Positions 1 through 37,269 of a stretch of DNA of 41,036 nt are shown one piece after another. A model generated the notes under the pieces. The model searched no databases, had not been told where the DNA came from, and saw only the letters and a list, made by a program, of their open reading frames with translations. A program made the translations under genes and the position numbers. Source of the DNA: a virus (lineage: Duplodnaviria > Heunggongvirae > Uroviricota > Caudoviricetes); IMG/VR virus record IMGVR_UViG_2778261637_000006; one strand, 5' to 3'. The number at the start of each line of letters is the position of its first letter. Position 1 is the first letter of the stretch.

Positions 1-573
1 TTACATTTCAGGTTGCGTTATGACAGTCCCAACAGGGTGGTAGCGGTAGATCGTTGACAGTCCAATATCATAGATAATTGCCAGCCGCTTTCTGTCATAC
101 CCTTTCTGGAGCAATCTTGCGATCTGCTCATGCTGCTCCTTCGTCAGTTTCGGGCGACGTCCTCCAACTCTTCCTTGTGCTCGCGCAGCAGCCAGTCCTG
201 CCAGCGTGCGCTCAACTATCAGTTCACGCTCCATTTCTGCCAGTGCACCCATCATATGAAAAAAGAACCTTCCCATCGGAGTGCTGGTATCGATTGAATC
301 CGTCAGACTGCGAAAATTGACACCTTTTGCGCGTAGCTCTTCTGTGAGAGCAATGAGGTGTTTCATTCTTCTACCCAACCGATCCAGCTTCCAGACCACC
401 AATGTATCCCCTCTTTTAAGGCACTTTAAAGCGCGTTTCAGGCCTGGTCGTTCCGACTTGGTTCCGCTCATTTTGTCCTCAAAAATCTGTTCACATCCTG
501 CGCACATTAATGCATTGCGTTGCAAATCTGTGTTTTGGTCATTTGTTGACACACGTATGTAGCCAATCAGCAT
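1..573 (-). CDS. gin: Serine DNA invertase, Gin/Pin/Cin/Hin family
   Basis: 190 aa from internal Met MLIGYIRVSTNDQNTDLQRNAL; conserved resolvase catalytic Ser in VSTNDQ and C-terminal HTH; very close to the Mu Gin and e14 Pin sequences as recalled. The upstream 43 codons of the ORF track are rejected. Confidence 0.9.
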   Translation of the reverse strand: MLIGYIRVSTNDQNTDLQRNALMCAGCEQIFEDKMSGTKSERPGLKRALKCLKRGDTLVVWKLDRLGRRMKHLIALTEELRAKGVNFRSLTDSIDTSTPMGRFFFHMMGALAEMERELIVERTLAGLAAARAQGRVGGRRPKLTKEQHEQIARLLQKGYDRKRLAIIYDIGLSTIYRYHPVGTVITQPEM

Positions 574-628
574 TAAAAATACTCCCTTTTGAGTGGTTAA
601 AGTACTGAGATAATGTGGGGAGGATTTG

Positions 629-850
629 AGAGATAAACGTTGGTTTGGGGGAAGGCTCTGCACTGCCTGTTGGTGTGCCTGTTCCATGGCCCACCGCCAC
701 ACCGCCAGCAGGCTGGTTAAAGTGCGACGGGCGCGCCTTTACAAAAGAACAATATCCTGTTCTGGCCAGAGTCTACCCGACCCTCCGTCTTCCCGATTTG
801 CGCGGTGAGTTTATCCGTGGATGGGACGACGGGCGCAAAGTTGATACGGG
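629..850 (+). repeat. Copy A of a ~215-bp homology block shared by three tail-fibre cassettes; candidate gix/hix-like crossover core at about 629..654
   Basis: Near-identical to 1143..1365 and to the reverse complement of 2570..2784; the start contains AAACGTTGGTTTGGGGGAAGG, resembling the AAACC-NN-GGTTT core of Gin/Hin sites. Confidence 0.5.
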
Positions 851-1148
851 GCGTTCATTGCTAAGTGGTCAGGCTGCAACATTTATTCGTACAGCTTTGC
901 AGGATTATTACGGTTACGATCTGAATACTAATGTCAAAGTAGGTATCGCTTTTGCTACTGCTGATTCTGTTATAACCGTTGGAAACCCAGCTAATCCTAA
1001 AGCAGGAAATAATAGCGATTATGTTCCTGCATCAGCAGATAACTCTATAACGGGTATTCAAAGGACAGCGGAGGATAATTTTACCGGGGCATGGATATCA
1101 ATGCGCCCCCGCAATGTTGCGTTTAATTACATCGTAAGGGCCGCATAA
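645..1148 (+). CDS. Promoterless alternative tail-fibre C-terminal cassette 1
   Basis: Begins with TTG, no SD; first ~70 aa (LGEGSALPVGVPVPWPTATPPAGW...RGWDDGRKVD) match the C-terminal part of the fibre gene, then a divergent ~90 aa tip, ending in conserved RPRNVAFNYIVRAA. Confidence 0.7.
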   Translation: MGEGSALPVGVPVPWPTATPPAGWLKCDGRAFTKEQYPVLARVYPTLRLPDLRGEFIRGWDDGRKVDTGRSLLSGQAATFIRTALQDYYGYDLNTNVKVGIAFATADSVITVGNPANPKAGNNSDYVPASADNSITGIQRTAEDNFTGAWISMRPRNVAFNYIVRAA

Positions 1149-1365
1149 AAACGTTGGTTTGGGGGAAGGCTCTGCATTGCCTGTTGGTGTGCCTGTTCCG
1201 TGGCCCACCGCCACACCGCCAGCAGGCTGGTTACAGTGCAACGGAGCTACGTTCACCAAAGAACAATATCCTGTTCTGGCCAGAGTCTACCCGACCCTCC
1301 GTCTTCCCGATTTACGCGGTGAGTTTATCCGTGGATGGGACGACGGGCGCAAGATTGACGAGGGG
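1143..1365 (+). repeat. Copy B of the homology block; candidate crossover core at about 1143..1168
   Basis: Same AAACGTTGGTTTGGGGGAAGGCTC start and ~200 bp near-identity with copy A. Confidence 0.5.
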
Positions 1366-1632
1366 CGTAAGTTGCTTTCATGGCAGAAAGGTACACTGGT
1401 CGGCGGTCATGACGATAACGATTCTTCGCTGGATATCTCGTACATGAGTAACGGAAATAATATTGACTATGGCGGCGATAAGGTGTTTGCGGGGAATTAC
1501 CGTAGCGATTATTTGTGGTACGCAATTCTGGGTGGAACAAACAGTCGCGCAAAAGCCGAATTAAACGGAGCATTCTTTAACATAACCCGCCCCCGCAATA
1601 TCGCGTTTAACTATATCGTGAGGGCGGCGTGA
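1159..1632 (+). CDS. Promoterless alternative tail-fibre C-terminal cassette 2
   Basis: TTG start, shared N-terminal 70 aa, distinct tip, conserved end RPRNIAFNYIVRAA. Confidence 0.7.
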   Translation: MGEGSALPVGVPVPWPTATPPAGWLQCNGATFTKEQYPVLARVYPTLRLPDLRGEFIRGWDDGRKIDEGRKLLSWQKGTLVGGHDDNDSSLDISYMSNGNNIDYGGDKVFAGNYRSDYLWYAILGGTNSRAKAELNGAFFNITRPRNIAFNYIVRAA

Positions 1633-1638
1633 TACCGT

Positions 1639-2253
1639 TCAGCTGGCAAGTGCCAGTGGCGCTTCCGGCCAGCTGATTTCAGGTGCCGTGCTGATATCCA
1701 GTGCGTTCAGCTCGTCGATATAATCCAGCACGGCGTTCAGTTTTGCCGTTTCTTCTGGTGTCAGACTGCGACCAGCACGCAGTTTGAGGTTGATAAGATC
1801 GACGGACGCCATCGCCTGTTTCACCCGTTGCTGGCGTTGCTGTCTGGCAACCTCCAGTTCTGCGGCTCGCTGCCGTTCAGTATCGGTTACCCACGCCTCA
1901 CCGTTCCAGGTATCCCATGGCGTGGCCGGCTGTTTTGTGGTGGTGTCCGCCGGGTAATCACCCGGTTGGGTAATCAGAACGGGGTTACCGTTCTCCGTGC
2001 TGTATACCGTCTCGCCGCGGTGATCAGGCACATGCTCCCACCCGTTCAGCGTGGCAGTCCGGCAAACCACGTAACCCGAAATTGCCTCCGGCGGTGCATC
2101 GGCGCACGAATGTGCCGGAGTACCCACCCCAAGGGCGAGATACTCCACAGAGGATGAGGTGTATTCCCGGGTTTCCTCGTCATAGTGATATACAGTGATC
2201 TCGCCCGCTACAGTGGCGATACCGTTTTCATCCAGAACTGCAGTGTTACTCAT
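1639..2253 (-). CDS. Tail-fibre assembly protein (Mu U / Tfa family)
   Basis: 204 aa immediately downstream of the fibre gene with 1-nt overlap; Tfa-like N-terminus MSNTAVLDENG and C-terminal region. Confidence 0.8.
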   Translation of the reverse strand: MSNTAVLDENGIATVAGEITVYHYDEETREYTSSSVEYLALGVGTPAHSCADAPPEAISGYVVCRTATLNGWEHVPDHRGETVYSTENGNPVLITQPGDYPADTTTKQPATPWDTWNGEAWVTDTERQRAAELEVARQQRQQRVKQAMASVDLINLKLRAGRSLTPEETAKLNAVLDYIDELNALDISTAPEISWPEAPLALAS

Positions 2254-4190
2254 TAAACTGCCCTCACAATGTAATTAAGTGCAATGCTACGGGGTCTGAC
2301 AGTGATACCCTTCGCATACCCGCTTCTGATAGAGGTCAGAATAGTAGCCTGCATACCATTGTCTGACATTGCCACGACAGGATCGCTGAATGTTGTCCCG
2401 TCCGGCATTTTAAAGCTGCCCTCACGAAGGTCTGTAATGGAATCTTCATTGTTGAATCCCATGCCGACTATCCCCGAGGTTCCCGTAGTGTCCTGGTTAT
2501 AATAATCCAGCATTGCTGTTCTTAACAGCGTTGCCCCTTGTGCGGACAGCAACTTACGTCCTGTATCAACTTTGCGCCCGTCGTCCCATCCACGGATAAA
2601 CTCACCGCGTAAATCGGGAAGACGGAGGGTCGGGTAGACTCTGGCCAGAACAGGATATTGTTCTTTTGTAAAGGCGCGCCCGTCGCACTTTAACCAGCCT
2701 GCTGGCGGTGTGGCGGTGGGCCACGGAACAGGCACACCAACGGGTAGCGCCGAGCCTTCTCCTAAACCAAGGTAATTGAGGACATCTTTTATACTGCCCT
2801 TAGCGATAATAGCGCGACCAATAGCTGTAAGGGTTGCCAGCGCTGCGCGGTCTGCTCCGGTAAAATAAGGCAACCGATCTGCTGCAGTGGCAAGTCCTGC
2901 CAGAGCAGTGAGCGTGGCATCTGCCGGTTGTTTTCCGTTTGCCAGATCGTATGCAGCCTTGACCGCTTTCGGTGTGGCGGCCAGTATTTCAGACGTGCTG
3001 TTGATGGCACTGCTCAATTGTATGGTGCCTTTTGCCGTCAGCGAGGCAGCAGGCACTCCCGTTATCTGACTCCACGGGTGAGTGTGGCTGACGGGCGCCT
3101 TGCCGGCTGCAAGGTCGTATGCAGCCTTGACCGCCTTCGGCGTGGCAGCCTCAGTTTCTGATTGACTGTCCGTGGCGCTGCTCAGTTGTACGGTGCCTTT
3201 TGCCGTCAGCGAGGCAGCAGGCACTCCCGTTATCTGACTCCACGGGTGAGTGTGGCTGACGGGGGCCTTGCCGGCAGCCAGGTCATATGCAGCCTTGACG
3301 GCCTTTGGTGTGGCGGCCAGCGTTTCAGAGGTGCTGTTGGTGGCACTGCTCAGTTGTACGATCCCTTTACGGGTCGTTGTTGCATCCTGGGCTGTGTATT
3401 TTCCCCGGGCCAGATCATACGCGATTTTCACAGCCTTCGGCGTGGCAGCCTCAGTTTCTGATTGACTGTCCGTGGCGCTGCTCAGTTGTACGGTGCCTTT
3501 TGCCGTCAGCGAGGCAGCAGGCACTCCCGTTATCTGACTCCACGGGTGAGTGTGGCTGACGGGGGCCTTGCCGGCAGCCAGGTCATATGCAGCCTTGACG
3601 GCCTTTGGTGTGGCGGCCAGCGTTTCAGAGGTGCTGTTGGTGGCACTGCTCAGTTGTACGATCCCTTTACGGGTCGTTGTTGCATCCTGGGCTGTGTATT
3701 TTCCCCGGGCCAGATCATACGCGATTTTCACAGCCTTCGGCGTGGCAGCCTCAGTTTCTGATTGACTGTCCGTGGCACTGCTCAGCTGTACGGTGCCTTT
3801 TGCCGTCAGCGAGGCAGCAGGCACTCCCGTTATCTGACTCCACGGGTGAGTGTGACTGACGGGTGCCTTGCCGGCTGCAAGGTCGTATGCAGCCTTGACG
3901 GCTTTTGGTGTGGCGGCCAGCGTTTCAGAGGTGCTGTTGGTGGCACTGCTCAGTTGGGTGAACCCCTTAGCTGTCAGTGTCGCGTCCGGGTGGTTACGGG
4001 AACGTACGTGTTCAGCCAGTGACTGTGCGGCTTCCTCCGTTTTTTTCTTCAGCCATTTCGTCCTGTTTGCCAGTTGCCGGGGGGCTCGATTTGATATCCC
4101 GTCAGCACCACCCAGAACCGGATCTGATGTCTCCAGTTGATAGATTTTTTCTTCCCACTTTTCTGTTTCATTCAGGTTTCCCATAATCAA
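2253..4190 (-). CDS. Tail fibre protein (Mu S-like) with internal repeats; currently fused variable tip
   Basis: 645 aa; repeated ~100-aa units (TAKGTVQLSSATDSQSETEAATPKAVK...); C-terminal 170 aa begins with the shared LGEGSALPVG block. Confidence 0.9.
   Translation of the reverse strand: MIMGNLNETEKWEEKIYQLETSDPVLGGADGISNRAPRQLANRTKWLKKKTEEAAQSLAEHVRSRNHPDATLTAKGFTQLSSATNSTSETLAATPKAVKAAYDLAAGKAPVSHTHPWSQITGVPAASLTAKGTVQLSSATDSQSETEAATPKAVKIAYDLARGKYTAQDATTTRKGIVQLSSATNSTSETLAATPKAVKAAYDLAAGKAPVSHTHPWSQITGVPAASLTAKGTVQLSSATDSQSETEAATPKAVKIAYDLARGKYTAQDATTTRKGIVQLSSATNSTSETLAATPKAVKAAYDLAAGKAPVSHTHPWSQITGVPAASLTAKGTVQLSSATDSQSETEAATPKAVKAAYDLAAGKAPVSHTHPWSQITGVPAASLTAKGTIQLSSAINSTSEILAATPKAVKAAYDLANGKQPADATLTALAGLATAADRLPYFTGADRAALATLTAIGRAIIAKGSIKDVLNYLGLGEGSALPVGVPVPWPTATPPAGWLKCDGRAFTKEQYPVLARVYPTLRLPDLRGEFIRGWDDGRKVDTGRKLLSAQGATLLRTAMLDYYNQDTTGTSGIVGMGFNNEDSITDLREGSFKMPDGTTFSDPVVAMSDNGMQATILTSIRSGYAKGITVRPRSIALNYIVRAV
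2570..2784 (-). repeat. Copy C of the homology block, inverted relative to A and B, inside the fibre gene; candidate crossover core at about 2759..2784
   Basis: Reverse complement reads CCTTGGTTTAGGAGAAGGCTC followed by ~190 bp near-identical to copy A. Confidence 0.5.
2860..3960. repeat. Tandem direct repeat, 300-bp unit, about 3.5 copies, in-frame in the fibre gene
   Basis: Identical stretches at 3121, 3421 and 3721 (cagccttcggcgtggcagcctcagtttctgattgactgtccgtggc); shadow ORFs 3162..3461 and 3462..3761 are identical. Confidence 0.85.
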
Positions 4191-4765
4191 CTGCTCCCGT
4201 GGTTATAACTGCCATCATGGATGGCGGTATTGTTATAGCGAATGGCCACAGACTGATACTCCAGGCTGGCCAGATGGCAGCGGGCCGGTGCAAATGCAGC
4301 GAGCGTCTGACGCAGCATCGCGGCCTGATCGTTAGTAATGGGCTGTTTCAGAATAACGCGATAAACCGCCCAGGCGGCTGCATCTCCATGAACAAACAGT
4401 CCGTTATAGCTGCGATTGCCGTCGTAACTGAGACGACCTGTGCCTTCAATCAGATCCACTTCACCAAAGCCAAAACGGCGGATAACTTCCCGGATTGACC
4501 ACGGCGTCCCTTTATACCGGTGTAGTTCGATGGCTGCTTTTATAAGCATGCGGCGAACATCGTCCGATTCCGCCAGCTCCCAGCCATCGCCAGACAGTGA
4601 GAACTGCTCGCCCAGCCATGGCAGCGCAGAACTGTCGACGATATCGACGAGAAAGACCATCAGTACGCTCAGGTCGATGTTATCCAGCCGCCCTGCCAGT
4701 CTTCCCAGCGTCCTGAGACTGATATCACCCTCAAGCGGTGGCGGGAGTTGTAATGGCTCAGTCAT
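4187..4765 (-). CDS. Baseplate/tail protein (P2 gpI-like, Mu gp48-like)
   Basis: Position between the baseplate J-like gene and the fibre gene; ATG at 4765 chosen over upstream GTG. Confidence 0.7.
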   Translation of the reverse strand: MTEPLQLPPPLEGDISLRTLGRLAGRLDNIDLSVLMVFLVDIVDSSALPWLGEQFSLSGDGWELAESDDVRRMLIKAAIELHRYKGTPWSIREVIRRFGFGEVDLIEGTGRLSYDGNRSYNGLFVHGDAAAWAVYRVILKQPITNDQAAMLRQTLAAFAPARCHLASLEYQSVAIRYNNTAIHDGSYNHGSS

Positions 4766-19397: not shown

Positions 19398-20219
19398 TTA
19401 TCCTCTCAGTTCCTGTTGTGCCAGTGGCTGAAGCGTACCCTGATAGCGGGCCAGGTCGGGACGGTATGCTGCCCCCGGTGCATAAGACCAGCCGACGTCG
19501 GTGGTCACCTTCGTGGTGCCGGTATTAAAGGTGGCCACGTTCCGCATTTCGCCGGTTTTCTCTGAGACCAGTTTCAGTTCCTGGCCCATGGCAGAGCCGG
19601 AGCTGATAACCTTCAGGCCACGGGCACGGACATCCGCCGCACTCAGGGCAATCACACTACAGCGGCAGCGCCAGCCGTTCGGCGGGTAAAATGCCTGCCA
19701 GAACGGGTCATCCCAGCGCAGCACCAGACCATGCAGCGCCAGATGGCTCCTGCGGGTATGGCTGTCGTTGATGCCGGTATACATCCAGTACGGCCTGTCG
19801 TCGACGTTTTCCATCTGCTCCGCCCAACGACCGGCGCTGTAGAGTACGGACATATTGGTGCGAAAGATGGTGTCGAGCCGCCACGGGCTGCCCTGCTGAA
19901 TGGTGACCGGCTCACCCGTTACCGGGTCAGTCGTGTCACGTGGTCCCCACCATCCCTTACGCTTCAGCACCGGCTCCAGCTCCTGCCGGAACCAGCGATC
20001 GGTTTTTCCTTCATCGACAGCCTGCTGCAGTGCCCCGCGAATATCTTCCAGAATATCCAGGCGGGTCACTTTAGCGACGGTAAAGGCGCGGGCATGGGCT
20101 TCCTGCCACATTTCTTCCCAGTCCCAGGTAATCTGATACCCTTTGGACTTCAGGTAACTGACTGCCCGCTTCGGGGGAAGCGTCATGCAGTACGCCAGTT
20201 CAGCCGTTGTCACGCTCAT
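19398..20219 (-). CDS. Head morphogenesis protein, Mu F-like
   Basis: Downstream of portal; ATG at 20219 chosen, start uncertain (alternatives 20246, 20186). Confidence 0.75.
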   Translation of the reverse strand: MSVTTAELAYCMTLPPKRAVSYLKSKGYQITWDWEEMWQEAHARAFTVAKVTRLDILEDIRGALQQAVDEGKTDRWFRQELEPVLKRKGWWGPRDTTDPVTGEPVTIQQGSPWRLDTIFRTNMSVLYSAGRWAEQMENVDDRPYWMYTGINDSHTRRSHLALHGLVLRWDDPFWQAFYPPNGWRCRCSVIALSAADVRARGLKVISSGSAMGQELKLVSEKTGEMRNVATFNTGTTKVTTDVGWSYAPGAAYRPDLARYQGTLQPLAQQELRG

Positions 20220-21696
20220 GCAGACGCCCCCAGATATTTGCCACAAAGAGAATGCGGGCCAGCCGTTCCTGCAGATCGTCCGTGTTCATCTGAGGGTAGA
20301 GCTCCGCCAGTTCGCCCAGCAGCTCAGACGGGTTAACCCCGTTTTCGACCCGCTTAAACAGAGGTGCCAGGACGGGTTCCAGCGTGCCATTTAACACACC
20401 TCCGTTCATCAGAATGTCCAGCGCGTCGTCAAGCTGCTGCTGAGCCTGAATATCGGCATCAATCGCCTCGGCAAATGACAGCGGCAGCATGTTATTCTGG
20501 CGTTCCGACGGTGGTGTCTCGTCAATATCGCCGTCCTGCAGCTGGTACTCACGCTTAAAGTATTGCGGGGTCAGACGCAGACCCGCCCGGGTGAGTTTTT
20601 CGTCGCGGGTGGCGCGGGTGTCATCAATGGTCTCCTGTTCCCACATGGCCCAGACCGGACACGGCACATCGCCGAAGTTCAGGGTGACCACCGTTCTGAT
20701 AACCTGATTCACTGCTGCCTGAATGATGTCCGCATCCGCATCGCGGATATCAGCCGTTACCTCCAGCCCGGCCTGTGCAGAGGCCTTGTTACTGTTCGCT
20801 TCCGTGGTCTGATTCTGACCAAGTAATGCAATGGAGATCTCACTGCGTGACAGTGTGATCAGCTCGCGGAATACCTCGCTGCTGTCCGCCTTACCATCCG
20901 CGGCTTTGAGTTCGATGCTGCTGTCATCGGGGATGGCGGCCACCGCGTCCTCCACCATCTGCTCCATGGAGTCCAGCAGTTTTTCAATCTCTGCATCATT
21001 TGCACCCCTCGGGTGCTTACCGATCACCCACGGGGAGCCAAACTTTTCGGCAAAGCGGAGCCAGAATTTCATCCCGCCTTTCTTGAAGGCGACCGGCCAG
21101 AAGCACATGGACAGGTCCGGGAAACCGTAAGGATTGTCATACGAGGCATCCTGTGCCGGCACCACGAATTTTGACGGTGACAGCAGCTCACCCTCCACAC
21201 CCGCATCACGCGCCCGGAAGCGCAGGCAGTTGTCCGTATCAAACTGAAACCACTCAGGCGGTTTGCCGACAATATCCGTCACTGCCCACGCCCTGACCGA
21301 ACGGCCCCACATGATTTCACAGGGCTGATACCCGTAGAGCACGGCATCACTCATCTCACCGATGATGCGGGACAGATCCAGATCGTCGAGCATGTCGCGG
21401 ATGAAACGGAAGACCCGGGCAGAAGCGTGACCGCGCTCCAGTCCACGCTCCAGTGATTTGAGCGCTGCTTTACGTCTGCGGATACAGCCCCCGACCAGCG
21501 GGTCGGTGCGCAGTTCGCGGTAGATACGGATATCCCGTCCCTGAGCCTTGAGAATGGGATCAGGATTGGGCAGATACATGCCCAGTCCGTAAAAGTCGAT
21601 CGCGCGGCTGCGGGAGGCAATCTGCGCGGTCAGTGATTTCTGAGGCTCAGAAAAAGCAACAAATTCATCGGGTGAAACCCAGATACCCCTCGCCAT
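20200..21696 (-). CDS. Portal protein (Mu gp29/H, DUF935 family)
   Basis: 498 aa directly downstream of large terminase with 1-nt overlap. Confidence 0.9.
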   Translation of the reverse strand: MARGIWVSPDEFVAFSEPQKSLTAQIASRSRAIDFYGLGMYLPNPDPILKAQGRDIRIYRELRTDPLVGGCIRRRKAALKSLERGLERGHASARVFRFIRDMLDDLDLSRIIGEMSDAVLYGYQPCEIMWGRSVRAWAVTDIVGKPPEWFQFDTDNCLRFRARDAGVEGELLSPSKFVVPAQDASYDNPYGFPDLSMCFWPVAFKKGGMKFWLRFAEKFGSPWVIGKHPRGANDAEIEKLLDSMEQMVEDAVAAIPDDSSIELKAADGKADSSEVFRELITLSRSEISIALLGQNQTTEANSNKASAQAGLEVTADIRDADADIIQAAVNQVIRTVVTLNFGDVPCPVWAMWEQETIDDTRATRDEKLTRAGLRLTPQYFKREYQLQDGDIDETPPSERQNNMLPLSFAEAIDADIQAQQQLDDALDILMNGGVLNGTLEPVLAPLFKRVENGVNPSELLGELAELYPQMNTDDLQERLARILFVANIWGRLHERDNG

Positions 21697-27784: not shown

Positions 27785-28549
27785 ATGAAAATGAAGACAT
27801 TACCCATCGTTCCATGGATTGGTGGCAAACGTCGCCTGGCAAAACACATCCTGCCGCTGTTTCCGGCGCATGAATGTTATGTGGAGCCGTTTTGTGGGGC
27901 AGCAGCGCTCTATTTTCTTAAGACACCCGGCAAGATCGAAGTCATCAATGATATCAACGGTGAACTGGTGAATCTGTACCGGGTGGTAAAGCATCACCTG
28001 GAAGAATTTGTCCGCCAGTTCAAATGGGCGCTGGTCAGCCGTCAGATCTACAAATGGCTGCAGATCACCCCGGAAGAAACACTGACGGATATCCAGCGTG
28101 CGGCACGGTTCTACTACCTTCAGAAGCAGGCGTTTGGCGGCAAGGTGGCAGAGCACAGCTTCGGTACCTCCACCACATCCCCGCCACGCTTCAACCTGCT
28201 GCGTATTGAAGAAGAACTGTCAGCAGCACACCTGCGGCTTTCCAGAACAGTCATAGAACACATGGACTGGCAACAGTGCATTGAGCGTTATGATCGTCCG
28301 CACACACTGTTCTACTGCGACCCACCGTACCTGGGTACGGAAGGCTATGGTGTGGATTTTCCTGAAGGGAACTACTCGCGGCTGGCAGAGCTGGCCCGGT
28401 GCATCAGAGGAAAAATGATAATTTCGGTGAACGATATCCCACAGATGCGCGAGGTGTTCACTGGACTGAACATACAGACAGTGAACATCAACTACAGTCT
28501 GGCGGGGAAATCTACGCCGCGCCGTGAACTGGTAATCTGCAACTTCTGA
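27785..28549 (+). CDS. DNA N6-adenine methyltransferase, Dam-like
   Basis: 254 aa; AdoMet motif FCGAAALYF then catalytic DPPY (FYCDPPYLG) in the order typical of Dam-type enzymes. Confidence 0.85.
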   Translation: MKMKTLPIVPWIGGKRRLAKHILPLFPAHECYVEPFCGAAALYFLKTPGKIEVINDINGELVNLYRVVKHHLEEFVRQFKWALVSRQIYKWLQITPEETLTDIQRAARFYYLQKQAFGGKVAEHSFGTSTTSPPRFNLLRIEEELSAAHLRLSRTVIEHMDWQQCIERYDRPHTLFYCDPPYLGTEGYGVDFPEGNYSRLAELARCIRGKMIISVNDIPQMREVFTGLNIQTVNINYSLAGKSTPRRELVICNF

Positions 28550-29293: not shown

Positions 29294-29345
29294 AGATTTT
29301 GAGTCTTTGTAAAAGGTTATCACATATCGCAAAAGAGGTATGCAG

Positions 29346-29654
29346 ATGAGTAAGACGAATGTTTCAAGCTCCGGCAGTCGCATCCTCCGGGTACTCAAAG
29401 CGCTGCGCGGTCATGCCCTGAACGGTATTTCCAACGGTGAACTGGCGGCAGCACTGCACGAGTCACCGGCAAACATCAACCGGGCACTCAACACCCTCAT
29501 TGAAGAAGGGTTGGCCCTGAAACTGGAAAACGGGCGTTTCGCGCCGGGCATCCAGTTACTGCAGATCGCTATGGCCCACAGTAACGAGATGGCACGTGCA
29601 CAGGATCGCATTAACGAAATCAACCAACGTGTCATTTCAGGTAGTCGTTTGTAA
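29346..29654 (+). CDS. Winged-helix-like putative regulator
   Basis: About 102 aa; ATG 29346 has better SD spacing than 29340; ISNGELAAALHESPANINRALNTLIEEGL resembles wHTH. Confidence 0.5.
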   Translation: MSKTNVSSSGSRILRVLKALRGHALNGISNGELAAALHESPANINRALNTLIEEGLALKLENGRFAPGIQLLQIAMAHSNEMARAQDRINEINQRVISGSRL

Positions 29655-29664
29655 GGAGTAATAA

Positions 29665-30576
29665 ATGGGACGCACCAAATCACCGATTAACACTGAACTG
29701 AACGCCGAGGTACCGCTGTCGGATGATCTCAATGTCAGTCTGAACGCCATGACACAGCATCGTATGGAGATCATGCAGCAGTTTGGCGATGGTCAGCCCT
29801 ATGAGCGTGATCGCATAGTTCATGAGGCTCGGTTTTATATGGCACAGAGCGCTGAGGCCATGCTGGAAGCAGGTAAACGACTTATTATTCTCAAAGAAAA
29901 TGAACCTCACGGGGACTTTGTTGGAATTGTAGAAGAACAACTTGGTCTGCATGTGCGCGCAGCACAACGAATGATGAAAGCATCTTTGAAATACCTTTCA
30001 CCAAAACTAGAGCCAAAAGCGACAACGTTGTCGCTTTTAGGTAAGGCAAAATTATTTGAACTTGTTGCTGAAGATGACGACGACCTTGCTGAACTGGCCG
30101 ACGGTGGCACAGTTGCCGGACTGACGCTTGACGATGTTGATCGCATGTCAGTACGTGAATTGCGTCAGGCCCTGCGCGAAGCGCGCGAAACCAACGCAGC
30201 ACAACAGCGCGTACTCGCCGACAAAAATGAAAAAATAGACTCACTCTCCACCAGACTGGAGAAGAAATCCCGTATTCAGCCACCTGAGCCTGATGAAGAG
30301 GTGAAGAAACTGCGGGCAGAAGTGACCGCGTTAGCGGTTGAGGCGGAATCTGCCATCGCCGTTCGACTGTCCAGCGCTTTTGAGACGCTGTGCGCATATT
30401 GTGCTGAAAACATGATTGATACCCCCAGAGACTTCATGGCAGGCCTGGTCTGTCAACTGGAAAGCACAGCGCGTAGCCTGCGCTCCACATTTGACCTGCC
30501 GGACGAGCCAACAGGCAATGCAGCGCCTTCATGGCTGACTGAGCCGACGCCACAGATTAACGGGCTGGAGGCATAA
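29665..30576 (+). CDS. Hypothetical protein with acidic/coiled-coil middle
   Basis: 303 aa, AAGGAG SD; between the ner-like gene and the transposase. Confidence 0.55.
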   Translation: MGRTKSPINTELNAEVPLSDDLNVSLNAMTQHRMEIMQQFGDGQPYERDRIVHEARFYMAQSAEAMLEAGKRLIILKENEPHGDFVGIVEEQLGLHVRAAQRMMKASLKYLSPKLEPKATTLSLLGKAKLFELVAEDDDDLAELADGGTVAGLTLDDVDRMSVRELRQALREARETNAAQQRVLADKNEKIDSLSTRLEKKSRIQPPEPDEEVKKLRAEVTALAVEAESAIAVRLSSAFETLCAYCAENMIDTPRDFMAGLVCQLESTARSLRSTFDLPDEPTGNAAPSWLTEPTPQINGLEA

Positions 30577-30579
30577 CCA

Positions 30580-32349
30580 ATGAATGCTGCCCTGACTGAA
30601 CGACTGGTTTATGTCGCCCGCGCGGCACGTGACGCGGGGCATGGTAAACGCGGCGCAGTATACGACGCTGCCTGTGCTGAACTTGGCATGTCCCGCGCCA
30701 CTCTGCTGCGCAGGCTGAAGGAGGTATCTGTGACTGATAAACGCAAAAAACGCGCCGATGCCGGGCGCAGCGCCCTGACCCGCGACGAAGCCGCGCTGAT
30801 ATCTGCCACACTGCGTGAGGCCACCCGCAAGAACGGTAAGCGTCTCTATTCCATCGCGGATGCAGTGGAAACCCTGCGGGCTAACGGCTTTATATCCGCA
30901 GGCAGAACAGATGAAACCACCGGTGAGTTTTTCCCGTTGTCCGAAGATGCCATCAGCCGAGCCCTGCGTAACTATGGCCTGCACCCGGAACAACTGGATG
31001 CCCCTGCGCCGCATACCGAAGTGGCCAGTCTGCATCCCAATCATGTCTGGCAGATTGACGCCTCACTCTGCACGCTTTACTACCTGAGCAATGGACATAA
31101 AGGGCTGCAGGTGATGGACAGCGCGAAGTTCTACAAGAACAAGCCCGCTAACCTTGCCCGTATCGCCAGTGACCGCGTGTGGAGTTACGAGATTACCGAC
31201 CATGCCAGCGGCTGGATTTACGTTGAGTATGTGACGGGCGCGGAATCAGGTGAGAACCTGTGTTCTGTGCTTATCAACGCCATGCAGGAGCGTGGCGGCG
31301 CAGACGTGCTGCACGGTGTGCCGAAAATACTCTATCTCGACCCCGGCTCGGCAAACACCGCGGGTATGACGAAAAACATGTGCCGCTCACTGGGCATCGA
31401 CCTGATAGCGCACAAGCCGCATAACGCCCGCGCCACCGGACAGGTGGAAAAGGCGCGGGACATTATCGAACGCAAGCTGGAGCCGGGTCTGAAGTTCCGG
31501 CCGGTTCACAGTCTGGAAGAACTCAACGCGCTGGCCGCGAAATGGCGCAGCCACTTTAACGCCACGGCTGTTCACAGCCGCCACGGTAAAACCCGCACGG
31601 ATATCTGGCTGAAGATTACTGCTGAGCAGCTGAAAAAAGCGCCTTCCGTTGAGGTATGTCGTGAACTGGCTGTGGCGGCACCAGAACTCCGCAAAGTCAC
31701 GCCAAAACTTCGTGTCTCGTTCCGGGGCACTGAATTTGACGTATCAACGGTACCGGGCGTACTGGTTGGTGAAAAACTGATGATTACCCGTAACCCGTGG
31801 CGCAGCGATGTGGCACAGGTGGTTCTGACCGGTGAGGACGGCCACGAGACGTTCTTCCTGGTCGAAGAGGTCAGAAAGAACGAGTTTGGCTTTGCTGAAG
31901 GCGCGGCGGTATTTGGCGAAAGTTACAAAGCCCTGCCGGAAACCCCGGCGCAGATGGCGGCAAAAGAAACCGAAGCGCTGGTCACCGGTACAGACAACGC
32001 CGCAGATGCAGCTGCCGCACGCAAGGCGAAGGCGCTGCCGTTCGGCGGGCGGCTTGACCCGTATAAACATATCGACGACACCACACTTCCGGCCTATATG
32101 CCGAAGCGTGGTCAGGCCTCTGACGTACGCGGGCCGCGCACTGAACAACGTCCCATGACTTATGTGGAGGCCGCGAAAGCCCTGCGCGATAAGTTCAGCG
32201 CCAACGGCTTTACCTGGACGCCGGAACATTACCGCCAGTTAACGGCACAGTATCCGGACGGCGTACCGGAAGCCGCACTGGATGAAGTCATGGCCACGCT
32301 GACCACGCCGGCCCGCAGCAGCGTTATCAGTATTGTTAACGGCAACTGA
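30580..32349 (+). CDS. DDE transposase, Mu A-like (rve/integrase core)
   Basis: 589 aa; integrase-core-like region from about residue 150 (HVWQIDASL, ILYLDPGSANT); followed by B-like ATPase and Gam. Confidence 0.85.
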   Translation: MNAALTERLVYVARAARDAGHGKRGAVYDAACAELGMSRATLLRRLKEVSVTDKRKKRADAGRSALTRDEAALISATLREATRKNGKRLYSIADAVETLRANGFISAGRTDETTGEFFPLSEDAISRALRNYGLHPEQLDAPAPHTEVASLHPNHVWQIDASLCTLYYLSNGHKGLQVMDSAKFYKNKPANLARIASDRVWSYEITDHASGWIYVEYVTGAESGENLCSVLINAMQERGGADVLHGVPKILYLDPGSANTAGMTKNMCRSLGIDLIAHKPHNARATGQVEKARDIIERKLEPGLKFRPVHSLEELNALAAKWRSHFNATAVHSRHGKTRTDIWLKITAEQLKKAPSVEVCRELAVAAPELRKVTPKLRVSFRGTEFDVSTVPGVLVGEKLMITRNPWRSDVAQVVLTGEDGHETFFLVEEVRKNEFGFAEGAAVFGESYKALPETPAQMAAKETEALVTGTDNAADAAAARKAKALPFGGRLDPYKHIDDTTLPAYMPKRGQASDVRGPRTEQRPMTYVEAAKALRDKFSANGFTWTPEHYRQLTAQYPDGVPEAALDEVMATLTTPARSSVISIVNGN

Positions 32350-32359
32350 GGAGGGAAAC

Positions 32360-33526
32360 ATGCTGGTACTGAAGCAGCAACTGAAAGAAGCCCGTATTCC
32401 ACAGGCGGTGGTGGCGAGAGCTGTCGATGTTTCTGAGGCCACGCTGGCCCAGATTGTGAATCATAACGCGTGGCCCCGCACCAGCCCCGGAGAAGTGCGC
32501 CGGCGTCTTGCGTCCTGGCTGGAAAGTCAGGGGATTGATACAACGAAGAGTTTTGATGCTGTACAGGGCGCGGCCACGCCCCGTACAGCGGGTACCACAG
32601 ATAAAACGAGCCTCAGTGAGGAAGAGAATATGTTACTCAAAAAACAGGTGTTATTTCCAGCAACCAAAAAAGCGTTTGGTCTTTTCCGTGACCCGTTCGC
32701 CGACGAAGCCATGCAGGGTTCTGATGATGTGTTCACCACCCCGGATATTCGCTACGTGCGTGAGGCGTTGTACCAGACAGCCCGTCATGGTGGGTTTATG
32801 GCCGTCATCGGTGAGTCCGGTGCGGGTAAATCCACGCTGCGCCGCGACCTGACTGAACGTATCAACCGCGAGAATGCGCCGGTAATTGTTATCGAGCCAT
32901 ACATCATCGCTATGGAAGACAACGATGTGAAAGGGAAAACCCTGAAGGCAGCAGCGATTGCCGAAGCCATTATCAGTACCATCGCACCACTGGAAAGCAT
33001 CAGACGCAGTCAGGACGCCCGCTTTCGCCAGTTGCATCGCGTCCTGAAAGACAGCAGCCAGGCGGGGTTCAGCCACGTTCTGGTGATTGAGGAGGCCCAC
33101 AGTCTGCCCATTCCGACACTGAAACACCTCAAACGCTTTTTTGAGCTGGAGTCCGGTTTCAAAAAACTGCTGTCCATCGTGCTGATTGGCCAGCCGGAAC
33201 TGGCGACAAAACTGTCTGAACGCAATATGGAAGTCCGTGAAGTCGTTCAGCGCTGTGAGGTGGTCGAACTTCTGCCTCTGGACAATAACCTTGAAGAGTT
33301 TCTGACGTTCAAACTGCAACGGGCCGGTAAACAACTGACGGACATTATGGACGCCAGCGCAGTGGATGCCATACGTGCCCGCCTGAGCAATCCGGGAAGT
33401 CATCGTAAAAATATGGTCAGCCTGCTGTATCCGCTGGCCGTCAGTAACCTGGTAATAGCCGCCATGAATCTGGCCGCTGAAATCGGGGTTCCACAGGTCA
33501 ACGCTGACGTTGTCAAAGGGGTTTAA
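32360..33526 (+). CDS. Transposition ATPase, Mu B-like (AAA+)
   Basis: 388 aa from ATG 32360 with GAGGAGGG SD; N-terminal HTH, Walker A GESGAGKST, Walker B HVLVIEEAH. Confidence 0.8.
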   Translation: MLVLKQQLKEARIPQAVVARAVDVSEATLAQIVNHNAWPRTSPGEVRRRLASWLESQGIDTTKSFDAVQGAATPRTAGTTDKTSLSEEENMLLKKQVLFPATKKAFGLFRDPFADEAMQGSDDVFTTPDIRYVREALYQTARHGGFMAVIGESGAGKSTLRRDLTERINRENAPVIVIEPYIIAMEDNDVKGKTLKAAAIAEAIISTIAPLESIRRSQDARFRQLHRVLKDSSQAGFSHVLVIEEAHSLPIPTLKHLKRFFELESGFKKLLSIVLIGQPELATKLSERNMEVREVVQRCEVVELLPLDNNLEEFLTFKLQRAGKQLTDIMDASAVDAIRARLSNPGSHRKNMVSLLYPLAVSNLVIAAMNLAAEIGVPQVNADVVKGV

Positions 33527-33528
33527 TA

Positions 33529-33798
33529 ATGAAATCCACCACAGGTATCAACCAGCAAATCAGCAAAGTGCAGTCAGCCATTATGGCGCTTAAGGCGACG
33601 AACACGGATGTACAAAGCATCACCATCAGGGGTAACAAACCTGTCATCCGCGTTTCCCGGAGTGCGCATTGCATGCGCATGCTTGAGCAGGGAAAGGCCT
33701 GTTATCTGTATACCGGTCATGACCACAGGGGACATTTCCGTCAGGGCGTTTTCGAACTGCACGGCTGTCGCGTCGTGTGGCCGGAATCTTTGTGGTAA
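33529..33798 (+). CDS. Hypothetical small early protein
   Basis: 89 aa, several Cys/His; coupled to the B-like gene. Confidence 0.5.
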   Translation: MKSTTGINQQISKVQSAIMALKATNTDVQSITIRGNKPVIRVSRSAHCMRMLEQGKACYLYTGHDHRGHFRQGVFELHGCRVVWPESLW

Positions 33799-33825
33799 TC
33801 AGCACAACAGGAGGAGTCATAAAAT

Positions 33826-34356
33826 ATGGCAAAAAGTACAAAAGGGGCAAAACGTATCAAAGCCGCAGCAGCACTCTGGGTGCCGGGGACACGCGAAGAG
33901 GTCATTGAGGGAATCAGACTGCTTGGTGACGCGCAACGTGAACTGGTCAGGGCTGAAACAGAAATGAATGACACCATTGGCGACATCACCGCACGTTATG
34001 CCCCGCTCACCGAGAGCCTGAAAAAACGCATGGCCGAACTGCAGTCCGGTATTCAGACATGGTGTGAGGCACACCGTGATGAACTGACCGGCAACGGGAA
34101 GGTGAAGTTCGCTAACCTCACCACCGGCGAGGTGCAGTGGCGAAACCGTCCGCCGTCAGTCAGTATCCGTGGGGCGGATAATGTTATTGAATTACTGAGA
34201 CGTCTGGGGCTTGAGCGCTTTATCCGTGTAAAGGAGGAAATAAATAAAGACGCCATCCTGAATGAAAAGGACGCCGTGAAAAATATTCCCGGTATTACCA
34301 TAAAAAGTGATATTGAGGATTTTTCAATAATTCCTTTTGAGCAGAATGTGCAGTAA
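33826..34356 (+). CDS. gam: Host-nuclease inhibitor Gam (Mu Gam / Ku-like)
   Basis: 176 aa; blocks such as RIKAAAALWVP, WCEAHRDELTGNGKVKFANLTTGEVQWRNRPPSVSIRG, GIEDFSIIPFEQ match Mu Gam as recalled. Confidence 0.9.
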   Translation: MAKSTKGAKRIKAAAALWVPGTREEVIEGIRLLGDAQRELVRAETEMNDTIGDITARYAPLTESLKKRMAELQSGIQTWCEAHRDELTGNGKVKFANLTTGEVQWRNRPPSVSIRGADNVIELLRRLGLERFIRVKEEINKDAILNEKDAVKNIPGITIKSDIEDFSIIPFEQNVQ

Positions 34357-34452
34357 AAACAGCATATAAGCTATTTAAAACAGCCTTTTCTTTTTTATTC
34401 CGGCATCAGCGCCGTGGGCTTCTGCACGCCGGAAACAGAGGAGAATTAAATC

Positions 34453-34647
34453 ATGATATTTAAATGTATTCAGTGCGAGAGGGATATAACAGCCCTGCGT
34501 TTTCACAGCGCCATCGCCGTGATGTCCGGTAAGTACCACGTACCTGCAGTACGCGTCACCCTGGTCTGTCCGTACTGCAGTCAGCATTTTTCGGCAGACG
34601 TGCCCGTCATGGAATTCTCCCGCCCTGACAGGGAGGACTCGCAATGA
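34453..34647 (+). CDS. Small zinc-ribbon-like protein
   Basis: 64 aa with CIQC and CPYC pairs. Confidence 0.5.
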   Translation: MIFKCIQCERDITALRFHSAIAVMSGKYHVPAVRVTLVCPYCSQHFSADVPVMEFSRPDREDSQ

Positions 34648-34916
34648 TTACCCCACAGGAAGCACGACAGCGCACCCGAACCCTTGTTGAACACTATGTC
34701 AACGAGTGTGAATGCCGCGACCTCACCGATGTGAAGCACGTCCTGACGGCGCTAATCAGCATGACCGCTCAGGCCATTGTGGCGACCAACGGAAAGGCGG
34801 CTGCCCTGCAGGTACTGGTGAACACACTCACCCACACGGCAGAGCACGATGTGCCGTACCGGATGGAAACCACTGCAGAAGGCGGCCTGAACATCACCGT
34901 CGACCGGAAACACTGA
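34644..34916 (+). CDS. Hypothetical small protein
   Basis: 90-aa ORF coupled to neighbours. Confidence 0.5.
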   Translation: MITPQEARQRTRTLVEHYVNECECRDLTDVKHVLTALISMTAQAIVATNGKAAALQVLVNTLTHTAEHDVPYRMETTAEGGLNITVDRKH

Positions 34917-34925
34917 GGGCGCGGC

Positions 34926-35231
34926 ATGACACGGAACACCGAACTCACCCGCACCGCCCTCTACCGTCTGGCCCTGCAGCGTTTCGGGCCGGACGCACAG
35001 GCCCTGAAACTGACAGAAGAGGCCGCTGAACTGGCGGCCAGTGCCGCCCGCAACCTGAACGGACAGGGCAGCGAAAGTGACCTCGCGGCAGAGCTGGCAG
35101 ACGTGGAAATCATGACAGAGCAGCTGCGCCTTCAGGGAATGGACCGGCTGATTGACTTCCACAAACAGAAAAAACTGGAACGCCTTGCCGCACGGCTGGG
35201 CGTCATGTACACCGGAGATACTGAACAATGA
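34926..35231 (+). CDS. MazG-like nucleotide pyrophosphohydrolase-type small protein (tentative)
   Basis: 101 aa with acidic helices TEEAAELAASAA and AAELADVEIMTEQL resembling MazG-like metal-binding motifs. Confidence 0.45.
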   Translation: MTRNTELTRTALYRLALQRFGPDAQALKLTEEAAELAASAARNLNGQGSESDLAAELADVEIMTEQLRLQGMDRLIDFHKQKKLERLAARLGVMYTGDTEQ

Positions 35232-35911
35232 CAGACCAGGATAAACACATTGAGAAACTGAAAAAGTTGCTGGCGCTGGCCGCATCCGGCAACCCTCACG
35301 AGGCCGCTCTGGCACTGCGCCGTGCCCGTAAACTGATGGATGTTCACGGCATCACACATTCCGACATCGCCATGAGTGATATTGATGAAACCATCAGTCA
35401 CTACTGGCCGACAGGCAGCCTCCGTCCACCGCGCTACATGCTGGGCCTGATGAACATCATCCGCGAGGCATTTGGTGTTAACTCCATCATTCACCCCGGC
35501 ACATATCCGGGTGTGGGGTTCTACGGCAACCGGGAACGGGCTGCACTGGCTGCGTACACCTGGGAAGTGCTGGCCCGCCAGCTGAAAAAGGCGCGTCAGC
35601 AATATATCAGCGCACAGAACAAAAGAATAAAAACTGCCACCCGTACCAGCCGTGGTGACCAGTTTGCTGAAGGCTGGGTGCTGGCCGTTATCAGTGAAAT
35701 ACAGTCCTTCGCCCTGACCGATGACGAACGTGAACTGATGCAGCAGTGGCTGGAACATAAATACCCGCAGACGCAAACCACCAGGGCGCGTAAACCGGGA
35801 AGAAGCCGCAATGGCGACGCCTCGCGCTATGCGGGGTTTCTTGAAGGGCAGAACGTCAGACTGCACCGCCCGGTCAGTGGGCAGGAACAACAGAAACTGG
35901 AGGCCAGATGA
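35228..35911 (+). CDS. DUF2786-like early protein
   Basis: 227 aa; N-terminus IEKLKKLLALAASGNPHEAALALRRARKLMDVHGI. Confidence 0.55.
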   Translation: MTDQDKHIEKLKKLLALAASGNPHEAALALRRARKLMDVHGITHSDIAMSDIDETISHYWPTGSLRPPRYMLGLMNIIREAFGVNSIIHPGTYPGVGFYGNRERAALAAYTWEVLARQLKKARQQYISAQNKRIKTATRTSRGDQFAEGWVLAVISEIQSFALTDDERELMQQWLEHKYPQTQTTRARKPGRSRNGDASRYAGFLEGQNVRLHRPVSGQEQQKLEAR

Positions 35912-36138
35912 TTACGCTATCAGGTAAAAGCCGGAAATTAAAAGCCTGCCGAATATCTGCCAGATACCTTTTTGCCCGCGCCTTTTTTAAGAACGTCAGG
36001 CCGGGGATCACAATTGGTGTTATTGCCGGACGCGAACAGGTTGAAAAATACATGTCAGGTGCATGGTGGAATAACGACCCTGTCATTGCTGCCCGTAATA
36101 TTCATATCAGTTGGGGGGATATTCAGAATGACGGCTGA
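35908..36138 (+). CDS. Hypothetical basic small protein
   Basis: 76 aa, ATGA overlap with the upstream gene. Confidence 0.4.
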   Translation: MITLSGKSRKLKACRISARYLFARAFFKNVRPGITIGVIAGREQVEKYMSGAWWNNDPVIAARNIHISWGDIQNDG

Positions 36139-36343
36139 ATCTGTTGTATGTGCCCTGTTCTGGTATTGTTTTGTCGGTTGGTGTACTGCTGAACTGCACC
36201 GCCGTTCAGGGTTTTATTCACGTTACAGTGGTGCTGGCTACTGGATTAGCTGGTCGGTGATGTTCCTGTGCTGGCCTGTGGCGCTTCCTTTATATGTCGA
36301 TTATATCGGTGGCGCAGGTAAAAGGAGCAACGATGATGACTAA
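36128..36343 (+). CDS. Small membrane protein (two predicted TM helices)
   Basis: 71 aa from ATG 36128; hydrophobic segments VVCALFWYCFVGWC and WISWSVMFLCWPVALPLYV. Confidence 0.45.
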   Translation: MTAESVVCALFWYCFVGWCTAELHRRSGFYSRYSGAGYWISWSVMFLCWPVALPLYVDYIGGAGKRSNDDD

Positions 36344-36785
36344 ACAACGTCTTATCCAGCTCATTCATATTGCCCGTAATGAACTGGGTATGGATGAAGA
36401 CACCTACCGCCAGATGTTACAGGGGCTGACCGGTAAAGCCTCAACCAAAGGAATGGATACCACACAACTAAACTGCGTGCTGGAATCCATGAAAAGGAAA
36501 GGCTTTCGCGTTAAGCCTGCCGGAAAAGCCAGCTCCGGTTTACCGCTGGATAACCATCCGCAGTCCAGGAAAATCCGTGCGCTATGGCTTGAAATGGCTG
36601 CTGCCGGCATTGTTCGTGACCGTTCAGAAAATGCATTAGCGCGGTGGATCAAGCGGGAAACGGGCATCAGCGCCCTGCGCTGGCTCAGTACTGAACAGGC
36701 AAGCAGTGTTATTGAGAAACTGAAGAAGTGGCAGCGCAGAGCTGCGGGAGTCAAACATGAGCGACCTGAATCAGTTTCGAAGTAA
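36333..36785 (+). CDS. GemA-like protein (Mu gp16, DUF1018-like)
   Basis: 150 aa from ATG 36333 with AAAGGAG SD; immediately upstream of mor as in Mu. Confidence 0.6.
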   Translation: MMTKQRLIQLIHIARNELGMDEDTYRQMLQGLTGKASTKGMDTTQLNCVLESMKRKGFRVKPAGKASSGLPLDNHPQSRKIRALWLEMAAAGIVRDRSENALARWIKRETGISALRWLSTEQASSVIEKLKKWQRRAAGVKHERPESVSK

Positions 36786-37155: not shown

Positions 37156-37198
37156 TTCCTGCTTGTTAAAGTCCTTTCAAAAATCTCCTTATTGTATA

Positions 37199-37231
37199 AA
37201 AGCACGGTAGACCCCTTACCGTGCTTTTTTT
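37199..37231 (+). terminator. Rho-independent terminator after mor
   Basis: Stem AGCACGGTA / TACCGTGCT with 7-nt loop followed by TTTTTTT. Confidence 0.8.
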
Positions 37232-37269
37232 ATGCTCTCTCTTTAGTATTCAGGATGCAGGGAGAAAAT

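Follow-up and report, generated by a model that had tools for sequence, protein, structure and literature searches.

How can one tail-fibre gene be supplied with several alternative tips when only a single tail-fibre assembly gene (tfa) accompanies them? This question is raised by the left end of a 41,036-nt stretch of viral DNA (the window; IMG/VR record IMGVR_UViG_2778261637_000006), which carries a tail-fibre gene, two spare tip cassettes, one tfa gene and a DNA invertase gene. We propose that the locus is, very probably, a Pin/Min-type multiple DNA-inversion switch for the tail-fibre tip of a Mu-like transposable Escherichia coli prophage. The evidence that carries this proposal comes from complete E. 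coli genomes, in which all four arrangements that are possible with three crossover sites are present.

Layout of the locus and its crossover sites

Coordinates refer to the window and crossover sites are written in the reading direction of the fibre gene. The leftmost 4.2 kb form the end of the late structural operon on the minus strand, in which homologues of the baseplate genes V, W, J and I are followed by the fibre gene H and then by tfa. The features needed for the argument are the following.

1..573, minus strand: serine DNA invertase gene (pin/min/gin-like, 190 aa; pin below), with Pfam Resolvase (8e-51) and HTH_7; the window begins at its stop codon
628..653, plus strand: crossover site R1, GAGAGATAAACG-TT-GGTTTGGGGGAA, preceding silent cassette c1
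642..1148, plus strand: silent cassette c1, 168 codons and a stop, Pfam Collar, without a start codon or promoter of its own
1142..1167, plus strand: crossover site R2, CGCATAAAAACG-TT-GGTTTGGGGGAA, the left half of which is the 3' end of c1
1156..1632, plus strand: silent cassette c2, 158 codons and a stop, Pfam Collar, converging on tfa with a 6-nt gap
1639..2253, minus strand: tfa (Tfa, 204 aa), Pfam Caudo_TAP (3.5e-28); its ATG overlaps the stop codon of the resident fibre (TAATG)
2253..2768, minus strand: resident tip c0, the last 171 codons of the fibre gene in the isomer of the window
2253-4184/4190, minus strand: tail-fibre gene H, 643-645 aa; RefSeq annotates a 1932-nt gene from the same ATG
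2757..2782, minus strand: crossover site L, TCCTCAATTACC-TT-GGTTTAGGAGAA, within the fibre gene and inverted with respect to R1 and R2
2769..4184, minus strand: constant part of the fibre, Pfam Phage_fiber_2 (2.8e-131, seven stretches), with 300-bp tandem units at 2941-4008
1156..2768, no strand: small invertible segment of 1613 bp, from the R2 core to the L core, with c2, tfa and c0
642..2768, no strand: large invertible segment of 2127 bp, from the R1 core to the L core, with c1, c2, tfa and c0

A preliminary description of this DNA had placed open reading frames at 645-1148, 1159-1632 and 1639-2253, which is correct, and had recognised three repeat blocks, each headed by a gix/hix-like core. 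The repeat finder and our reading of the sites agree with this, with blocks of ~230 bp. It returned a direct pair at 635-862 and 1149-1376 (228 nt, 91% identity) and two sets of inverted arms, at 637-910 and 2500-2773 (274 nt, 88%) and at 1151-1379 and 2545-2773 (229 nt, 89%), so that there are three blocks (635-862, 1149-1376 and, inverted, 2545-2773), far above the chance expectation. Each block starts with a 26-bp hix/pix-type site with a central TT. An alignment of the cores with known crossover sites had been suggested, and the sites agree with the e14 pix and Mu gix repeats: site L shares 18 of 21 positions with the e14 inverted repeat AAACCTTGGTTTGGGAGAAGG and 17 of 19 with the shorter Mu repeat (the e14 repeat was read directly in K-12, and both repeats were also taken from Table S1 of PMC4272514). 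In form these are sites of the Gin/Hin/Pin/Cin/Min ('Din') kind, 26 bp long with two imperfect 12-bp half-sites around a 2-bp core and with the recombining pair inverted, and their arrangement is that of a Min-type multiple-inversion system, in which three sites delimit overlapping segments of 1613 and 2127 bp and give four isomers and three tips.

In pairwise comparisons the blocks differ mainly at synonymous sites (proportion of synonymous differences, pS, 0.18-0.38; of non-synonymous differences, pN, 0.02-0.08), and what is conserved in the long repeat is therefore the protein domain that it encodes (Pfam Collar), not DNA held identical for recombination. The recombination target is the 26-bp site at the start of the block alone.

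All four isomers occur in natural genomes

The junctions predicted for fibres carrying c1 or c2 (H-c1 and H-c2) were searched in 5426 complete E. coli genomes. Both fusions were found, many of them uninterrupted and with identities of up to 100%. Cassette c2 is joined to the constant part of the fibre in Esc30 and many other genomes, in single 817-nt matches of up to 100% identity, and c1 is in frame with the constant part in FDAARGOS_1303 and DA33135. The four arrangements, with arrowheads giving the reading direction, are these.

Isomer 1: pin / c1> c2> <tfa <c0-H (window, Esc31)
Isomer 2: pin / c1> c0> tfa> <c2-H (Esc30)
Isomer 3: pin / c0> tfa> <c2 <c1-H (DA33135; the large segment inverted as a whole)
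Isomer 4: pin / c2> <tfa <c0 <c1-H (FDAARGOS_1303)

The segments of the four isomer loci match the window at 100% by BLAST, and what distinguishes them is the way in which half-sites are combined. The three left half-sites (those of the fibre constant part, of the pin side and of the c1 end) re-assort with the two kinds of right half, and the break lies inside TTGGTTT. In the four isomers, sequence differences lying 4-6 nt rightward of the core go with the cassette, and those on its left side stay with the flank; a hybrid site, CGCATAAAAACG-TT-GGTTTAGGAGAA, is present in both Esc30 and FDAARGOS_1303. The left half of R1 on the pin side is joined to c0, c1 or c2 depending on the genome, and in metagenome contigs to c0, c1 and other cassette types, and c0 is found elsewhere detached from the constant part, either next to the pin side or downstream of c1. 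As the exchange is confined to TTGGTTT, it points to cleavage at the central TT and not to homologous recombination along the 230-bp repeat. Natural variation between genomes thus records exchange at the core.

The near-isogenic isolates Esc30 and Esc31 carry the prophage at the identical position in malE. The 1.6-kb segment is inverted between them with 1 mismatch in 1620 nt, and the mismatches outside the switch are alignment ends that run into the repeat blocks. Among the 5426 genomes, approximately 617 have this type of tfa, 327 the H|c0 junction, 78 the H|c1 junction and 103 the H|c2 junction, the last two counts being somewhat inflated because the search joins pieces on the same strand, so that some H|c2 cases are H-c1 followed by c2. 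Among the metagenome matches listed there were at least five H|c0 and at least two H|c1 junctions and no H|c2 junction, too few to count.

The central claim of the preliminary description, that a Gin-family invertase could join either silent cassette to the constant part of the fibre, is borne out by the four isomers and the clean exchange of half-sites at the core, and so are three tips with one tfa. It had named the lack of isomers and decay of the cassettes as grounds on which the idea would fall; isomers were found, and the cassettes are intact.

Some strains (loci L001 and L012; phage 503046 and 2016C-3878) lack exactly one 514-bp unit, c1, and in these the pin-side half-site joins c2. 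This loss is what a rare deletion between the direct sites R1 and R2, or recombination between the 91%-identical blocks, would leave behind.

The invertase

The product of pin matches the structures of Mu Gin over residues 1-181 (4M6F, E=2e-93; 3UJ3, E=1e-92), and the DNA-binding domain of Hin matches it at 1e-10. With an N-terminal catalytic domain, a C-terminal helix-turn-helix domain and Gin and Hin as near relatives, it is a small serine recombinase. It is 84% identical to the invertase of P1-type plasmids and 81% identical to that of a three-repeat locus in enteropathogenic E. coli (EPEC). The gene is intact, and across strains pS is 0.015 and pN 0.002.

The alternative tips

The three tips have a Collar block in common, in which 66 of the first 70 residues are identical. 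The two spare cassettes had been described as TTG-initiated, but this TTG is a leucine codon within the in-frame LGLGEGS junction and no initiation codon. Similarly, all three tips were said to end in the same motif; this holds for c1 (RPRNVAFNYIVRAA) and c2 (RPRNIAFNYIVRAA), whereas c0 has RPRSIALNYIVRAV. That the variable parts are AT-rich is clear for c1 (40% GC) and modest for c2 (46.5%) and c0 (49.5%), against 55-62% in the surroundings.

Comparison of c1 with its counterpart in ZH063 gave 26 synonymous and 12 non-synonymous changes (pS 0.205, pN 0.032), comparisons of c2 gave pS values of 0.07-0.11 and pN values of 0.006-0.017, and the variable part of c1 has a pN/pS of 0.12-0.26 against seven more distant IMG/VR relatives. 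No stop codon interrupts c1 or c2 at any of the loci examined. To judge from these substitution patterns, both spare cassettes are under purifying selection.

Eleven tip types were found among fifteen loci, and gut and food metagenomes contain cassettes of 134-192 codons behind the same crossover site. The structure matches of the tip region are to the collar region of T4 gp37 and to a short tail fibre alone, and have no bearing on whether a chaperone is needed. With respect to the origin of this diversity, the variable part within c1 (the comparison covered window 647-1145) has pS values of 0.12-0.16 against the IMG/VR relatives (L029, L026, L035 and L097), while the adjoining upstream Collar block has pS values of 0.62-0.69 against the same relatives. 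Because the variable part is so much closer than the block, variable modules would move between phages separately from it, and they appear to be exchanged through recombination within the cassette.

The constant part of the fibre is variable in another way. Its shaft (2941-4008) consists of four 300-bp tandem units that are 78-97% identical to each other (Phage_fiber_2 repeats), and fibre matches in other E. coli genomes fall short of the query span by ~300, 420 or 665 bp, so that the length of the gene varies by strain. This suggests that the copy number of the repeats, and hence the length of the fibre, varies.

One tfa gene for three tips

Positions 1-4200 contain a single Caudo_TAP gene, and as only 6 nt separate the stop codon of c2 from that of tfa, there is no room for the remnant of a second one. 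At every locus examined tfa is adjacent to and co-oriented with c0. Since c2, tfa and c0 share one segment, expression of c0 always comes with tfa in the sense orientation and expression of c2 always with tfa antisense; c1 can be expressed with either, sense tfa in isomer 4 and antisense tfa in isomer 3. The earlier statement that tfa would be antisense after inversion is thus right for isomers 2 and 3 and wrong for isomer 4, in which H-c1 is followed by c0 and tfa in the sense direction.

The presence of a single tfa had also been singled out as unlike Mu or P1. As a difference from Mu G, P1 C and e14 P this is correct, but it is no peculiarity of the window: the layout is usual in the EPEC three-repeat locus, in Min-like P1-type plasmids, where two to five spare cassettes accompany one tfa, and in many IMG/VR loci. 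A set of 103 unique IMG/VR loci includes arrays with as many as eight cassettes and one tfa, along with symmetric loci of the form c> tfa> <tfa <c, built from the same protein families.

If each Tfa were matched to the tip beside it, c1 and c2 would be orphans. This idea is unsupported, as the two proteins co-vary only weakly: over 112 tip-Tfa pairs, the identity of the tip variable parts and that of the Tfa N-terminal parts have a Spearman correlation of 0.15, and unrelated tips occur with Tfa N-terminal parts that are up to 97% identical. In three IMG/VR loci a c1-type tip (variable part 97% identical) stands directly before a co-oriented tfa of its own. The Tfa protein beside this tip in L029 is 59% identical to the Tfa of the window and 74% identical to a P1-type plasmid Tfa, the neighbouring tip of which is unrelated (22% identity). 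A sequence search with Tfa against solved structures gave no match.

On these comparisons, one generic Tfa chaperone for the whole tip family is the most likely arrangement, and we infer that it recognises a common feature, either the RPRx(I/V)AxNYIVRA strand at the C-terminus or the Collar block. All tips share both, so that one tfa gene would suffice.

Proposed mechanism and alternative explanations

In our proposal, the invertase (1-573, minus strand) would recombine site L in the fibre gene with R1 or R2, which are oppositely oriented and lie ahead of the promoterless cassettes. Exchange would take place in frame at the 2-bp core (…NYL|GLGEGS…), and each inversion would thereby swap the last ~160-170 codons of the fibre. 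The three sites would yield four isomers and three fibre proteins, with H-c1 made in two isomers and H-c0 and H-c2 in one isomer each, and a lysogen population would release virions of differing receptor specificity, a form of host-range bet-hedging. Three elements of this scheme are ones that we infer, namely the dependence on Fis and an enhancer, the change in host range, and the supply of Tfa when tfa faces the wrong way.

Several observations weigh against this proposal. Inversion is deduced from natural variation and not from the source strain itself, and the Fis enhancer that would be expected in the 5' part of the invertase gene is not established from the sequence: there is one strict match to the Fis consensus at +71..+85 of the gene and a weaker G…C 15-mer, found by eye, ~49 bp upstream, and the 5' 180 nt, with 71-76% identity to pinE and a Min-like gene, are not conserved above the rest of the gene. 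The remaining points concern tfa, which in isomers 2 and 3 reads against the late operon and is never co-oriented with c2. A scan of positions 1-4400 found no sigma-70-like promoter able to drive tfa independently, be it an orientation-independent tfa promoter or a rightward promoter upstream of pin; the sole sigma-70-like hit is on the wrong strand, inside c1, and within chance expectation, and a TTGAGT…GATAAT pair found by eye at 589-614 has a spacer of just 14 nt. Furthermore, the same tip and Tfa families include loci where each tip has its own co-oriented tfa, and c1-type tips elsewhere adjoin their own tfa, which suggests that orientation matters to some extent. Lastly, H-c0 is the commonest state, in ~53% of the genomes with this tfa, which may be due to selection of the tfa-sense state or just to loci in which inversion cannot take place.

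It may be, though we think it rather unlikely, that the switch works but that infectious particles arise solely from the tfa-sense isomers, as H-c0 from isomer 1 and H-c1 from isomer 4. Virions with H-c2, or with H-c1 from isomer 3, would then be fibre-less or defective unless a co-resident prophage supplied a compatible Tfa, and c2 would effectively be dead or parasitic. The frequency of H-c0 and the failure to find an independent tfa promoter fit this idea, as do the convergence of c2 and tfa at a distance of 6 nt without a terminator-like site between them, the order of tip then tfa in the single-tip phages HK97, HK106 and pro483, and the existence of symmetric two-tfa loci. However, a tfa-converging cassette is present in every single-tfa locus, including the widespread two-site versions (L001, L011, L012, L017 and L018), where it is the sole alternative tip and where the invertase would be purely harmful if only tfa-sense isomers were productive. 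Also, c2 is under apparent purifying selection and without decay, and tfa is found at a median of one place per genome, which leaves a second near-identical copy elsewhere unsupported as the source of the chaperone and means that rescue in trans by such a copy is not the rule. Returning to the proposed switch, the chaperone gene itself flips, and if the tfa-antisense isomers do give infectious virions, it is possible, if doubtful, that either the c1 and c2 tips fold without Tfa or tfa is expressed regardless of its orientation from an unrecognised promoter inside c0. To our knowledge, neither Tfa-free folding of a tip nor orientation-independent expression of tfa has been described for tail-fibre switches. 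Should c1 and c2 fold without Tfa, its presence or absence would be a second variable between the tip states.

Two further explanations question the invertase or its purpose. We give very little credence to the view that the cassettes are decayed remnants and that the arrangements are products of sporadic, RecA-dependent recombination between the ~230-bp repeats, even though these are long enough for homologous recombination at 88-91% identity and the variants without the 514-bp unit (phage 503046 and 2016C-3878) could be recombination deletions. Exchange is limited to the 7 nt of TTGGTTT at the start of the repeat, and the polymorphisms that distinguish GGTTTAGGAGAA from GGTTTGGGGGAA follow the cassette in all four isomers; moreover, the invertase gene is conserved and intact, stop codons are absent from the cassettes and their pN/pS is low, and homologous loci in EPEC and in the phage FRphi flip in culture, with switching lost in a gin deletion of FRphi. 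We regard it as improbable that inversion has been taken over by the host, as reported for PinQ/PinR of cryptic prophages, with fibre-derived proteins acting in the lysogen, for example by blocking the adsorption of other phages, instead of serving the host range of the phage itself. Inversion mediated by PinQ in a cryptic prophage reportedly inhibits T2 adsorption (PMC12529663), and the invertase and sites of the window are of the same family as those of PinQ/PinR. The prophage studied here, however, looks complete and mobile, with a Mu-type portal, a terminase-like open reading frame, a transposase and a MuB-like ATPase, and it resides at many different chromosomal sites across strains. Its fibre gene follows immediately on the baseplate genes within the late structural operon and would therefore not be expected to be expressed in the lysogen.

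The prophage and its host

The prophage is of the Mu-like transposable type; its genes include those for a Mu-type portal (20200-21696), an rve transposase (30580-32349) and a MuB-like AAA ATPase (32333-33526). Elsewhere (L003, L006 and L009-L012 among the loci) it is inserted in malE, ssuB, yfaL, a FHIPEP gene and the sfa region, beside gspL, and within lysB/lysC of another prophage. Its early genes (window 29340-38300) read away from the late genes, unlike those of Mu, which read in the same direction. A gene for a D12-class N6-adenine DNA methyltransferase lies in the middle of the prophage (27785-28549).

Short motifs recur near both ends: copies of CATTTATC and TTATTTATC are found near 38220-38270 (window 38200-38280), and their complement GATAAATG is found twice in Esc31, immediately beyond the stop codon of pin (L006, 2930-2975). 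These look like terminal transposase-binding repeats, which would put the right end of the prophage ~200 bp before mutS. Positions 38475-41036 are a complete host mutS gene (853 aa, all five MutS domains), so that the window spans from the stop codon of the invertase gene to that of mutS and includes ~2.7 kb of host DNA.

This type of tfa is present in ~11% of complete E. coli genomes, and assemblies of such strains freeze one arbitrary isomer. In RefSeq, unfused cassettes (L003, L006 and L010) are labelled either 'phage tail protein' or 'incomplete; partial in the middle of a contig' pseudogenes, depending on the isomer that was assembled. A host-range prediction from a single assembly misses two of the three tips. 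The way in which one invertible tfa serves all tips would tell whether the Tfa family is generic or dispensable.

Comparison with known inversion systems

The invertase family, the crossover sequence and the alternative 3' ends for a constant fibre gene are shared with the Mu G/Gin, P1 C/Cin and e14 P/Pin systems. These possess two sites and two tips, each with a tfa of its own, whereas three sites and three tips are found here with one tfa. We checked the arrangement in e14, which carries stfP-tfaP and tfaE-stfE; the co-oriented tfa for each tip that marks the two-cassette systems is not a feature of the window.

A closer likeness is to the Min system of p15B and the Min-like loci of P1-type plasmids, which also have more than two sites, overlapping segments and a fibre constant part built of repeats. 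The Min-like loci (L013, L014 and L007) likewise have spare Collar-type cassettes stacked beside the invertase gene and a single tfa. They differ in having up to six sites, where the window has three sites and four isomers, in residing on P1-type plasmids and not in a transposable prophage, and in their set of tips, and their Tfa proteins are 56-57% identical to that of the window. The Min system of p15B, known from the work of Sandmeier, Iida and Arber in 1990-92, is the classical multi-site precedent, reportedly with six sites and 240 isomers. The R64-type shufflon is set apart by its tyrosine recombinase Rci, its sfx sites and its target pilV; here the recombinase is a serine enzyme and the target a phage fibre gene, so that 'shufflon' is a loose analogy.

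The nearest counterpart is the P2-like prophage of EPEC E2348/69 (Goldberg et al., 2014, PMC4272514), in which paired-end sequencing and polymerase chain reaction (PCR) revealed two overlapping inversions at three 215-bp repeats, with four variants coexisting and three different C-termini. The two loci are homologous (invertase 81% identity, Tfa 59%) and have the same components, a fibre gene, two spare cassettes, one tfa and one invertase gene, arranged in EPEC as H-cX> cY> <tfa <cZ inv>. There the ~215-bp repeats start with …ACC/ACG-TT-GGTTTGGGGGAAGGCTCTGC, as they do here, and the inversions are of ~2.0 and 1.6 kb, compared with 2.1 and 1.6 kb in the window. The EPEC backbone is P2-like and that of the window Mu-like, the constant part of the fibre differs, and the variable parts of the three EPEC tips are unrelated to c0, c1 and c2 (28-39% identity).

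A gin shufflon has also been reported for FRphi, a temperate phage of Enterobacter (PMC13418256). It produces three C-terminal isoforms in a 50/25/25 split, and deletion of gin abolishes switching; the study (2026) used locked variants and found related loci with up to six paralogues. This split equals the equilibrium expectation for a three-site, four-isomer system. FRphi is a lambdoid-type phage with other tips, and we liken it to the window by description. In E. coli of sequence type 131 (ST131), a preprint reports PCR-verified switching in the fibre genes of 'Entero_P88'-type prophages and a 'translocation' in an invertase-bearing prophage of the 'Burkho_phiE255' type; a conversion of isomer 1 into isomer 4, or the reverse, would be seen as a translocation of this kind.

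Taken together, the mechanism and the architecture of such switches are already established, and what the window adds is a tip set of its own on a Mu-like backbone, and with it a well-documented three-tip fibre switch in a transposable prophage.

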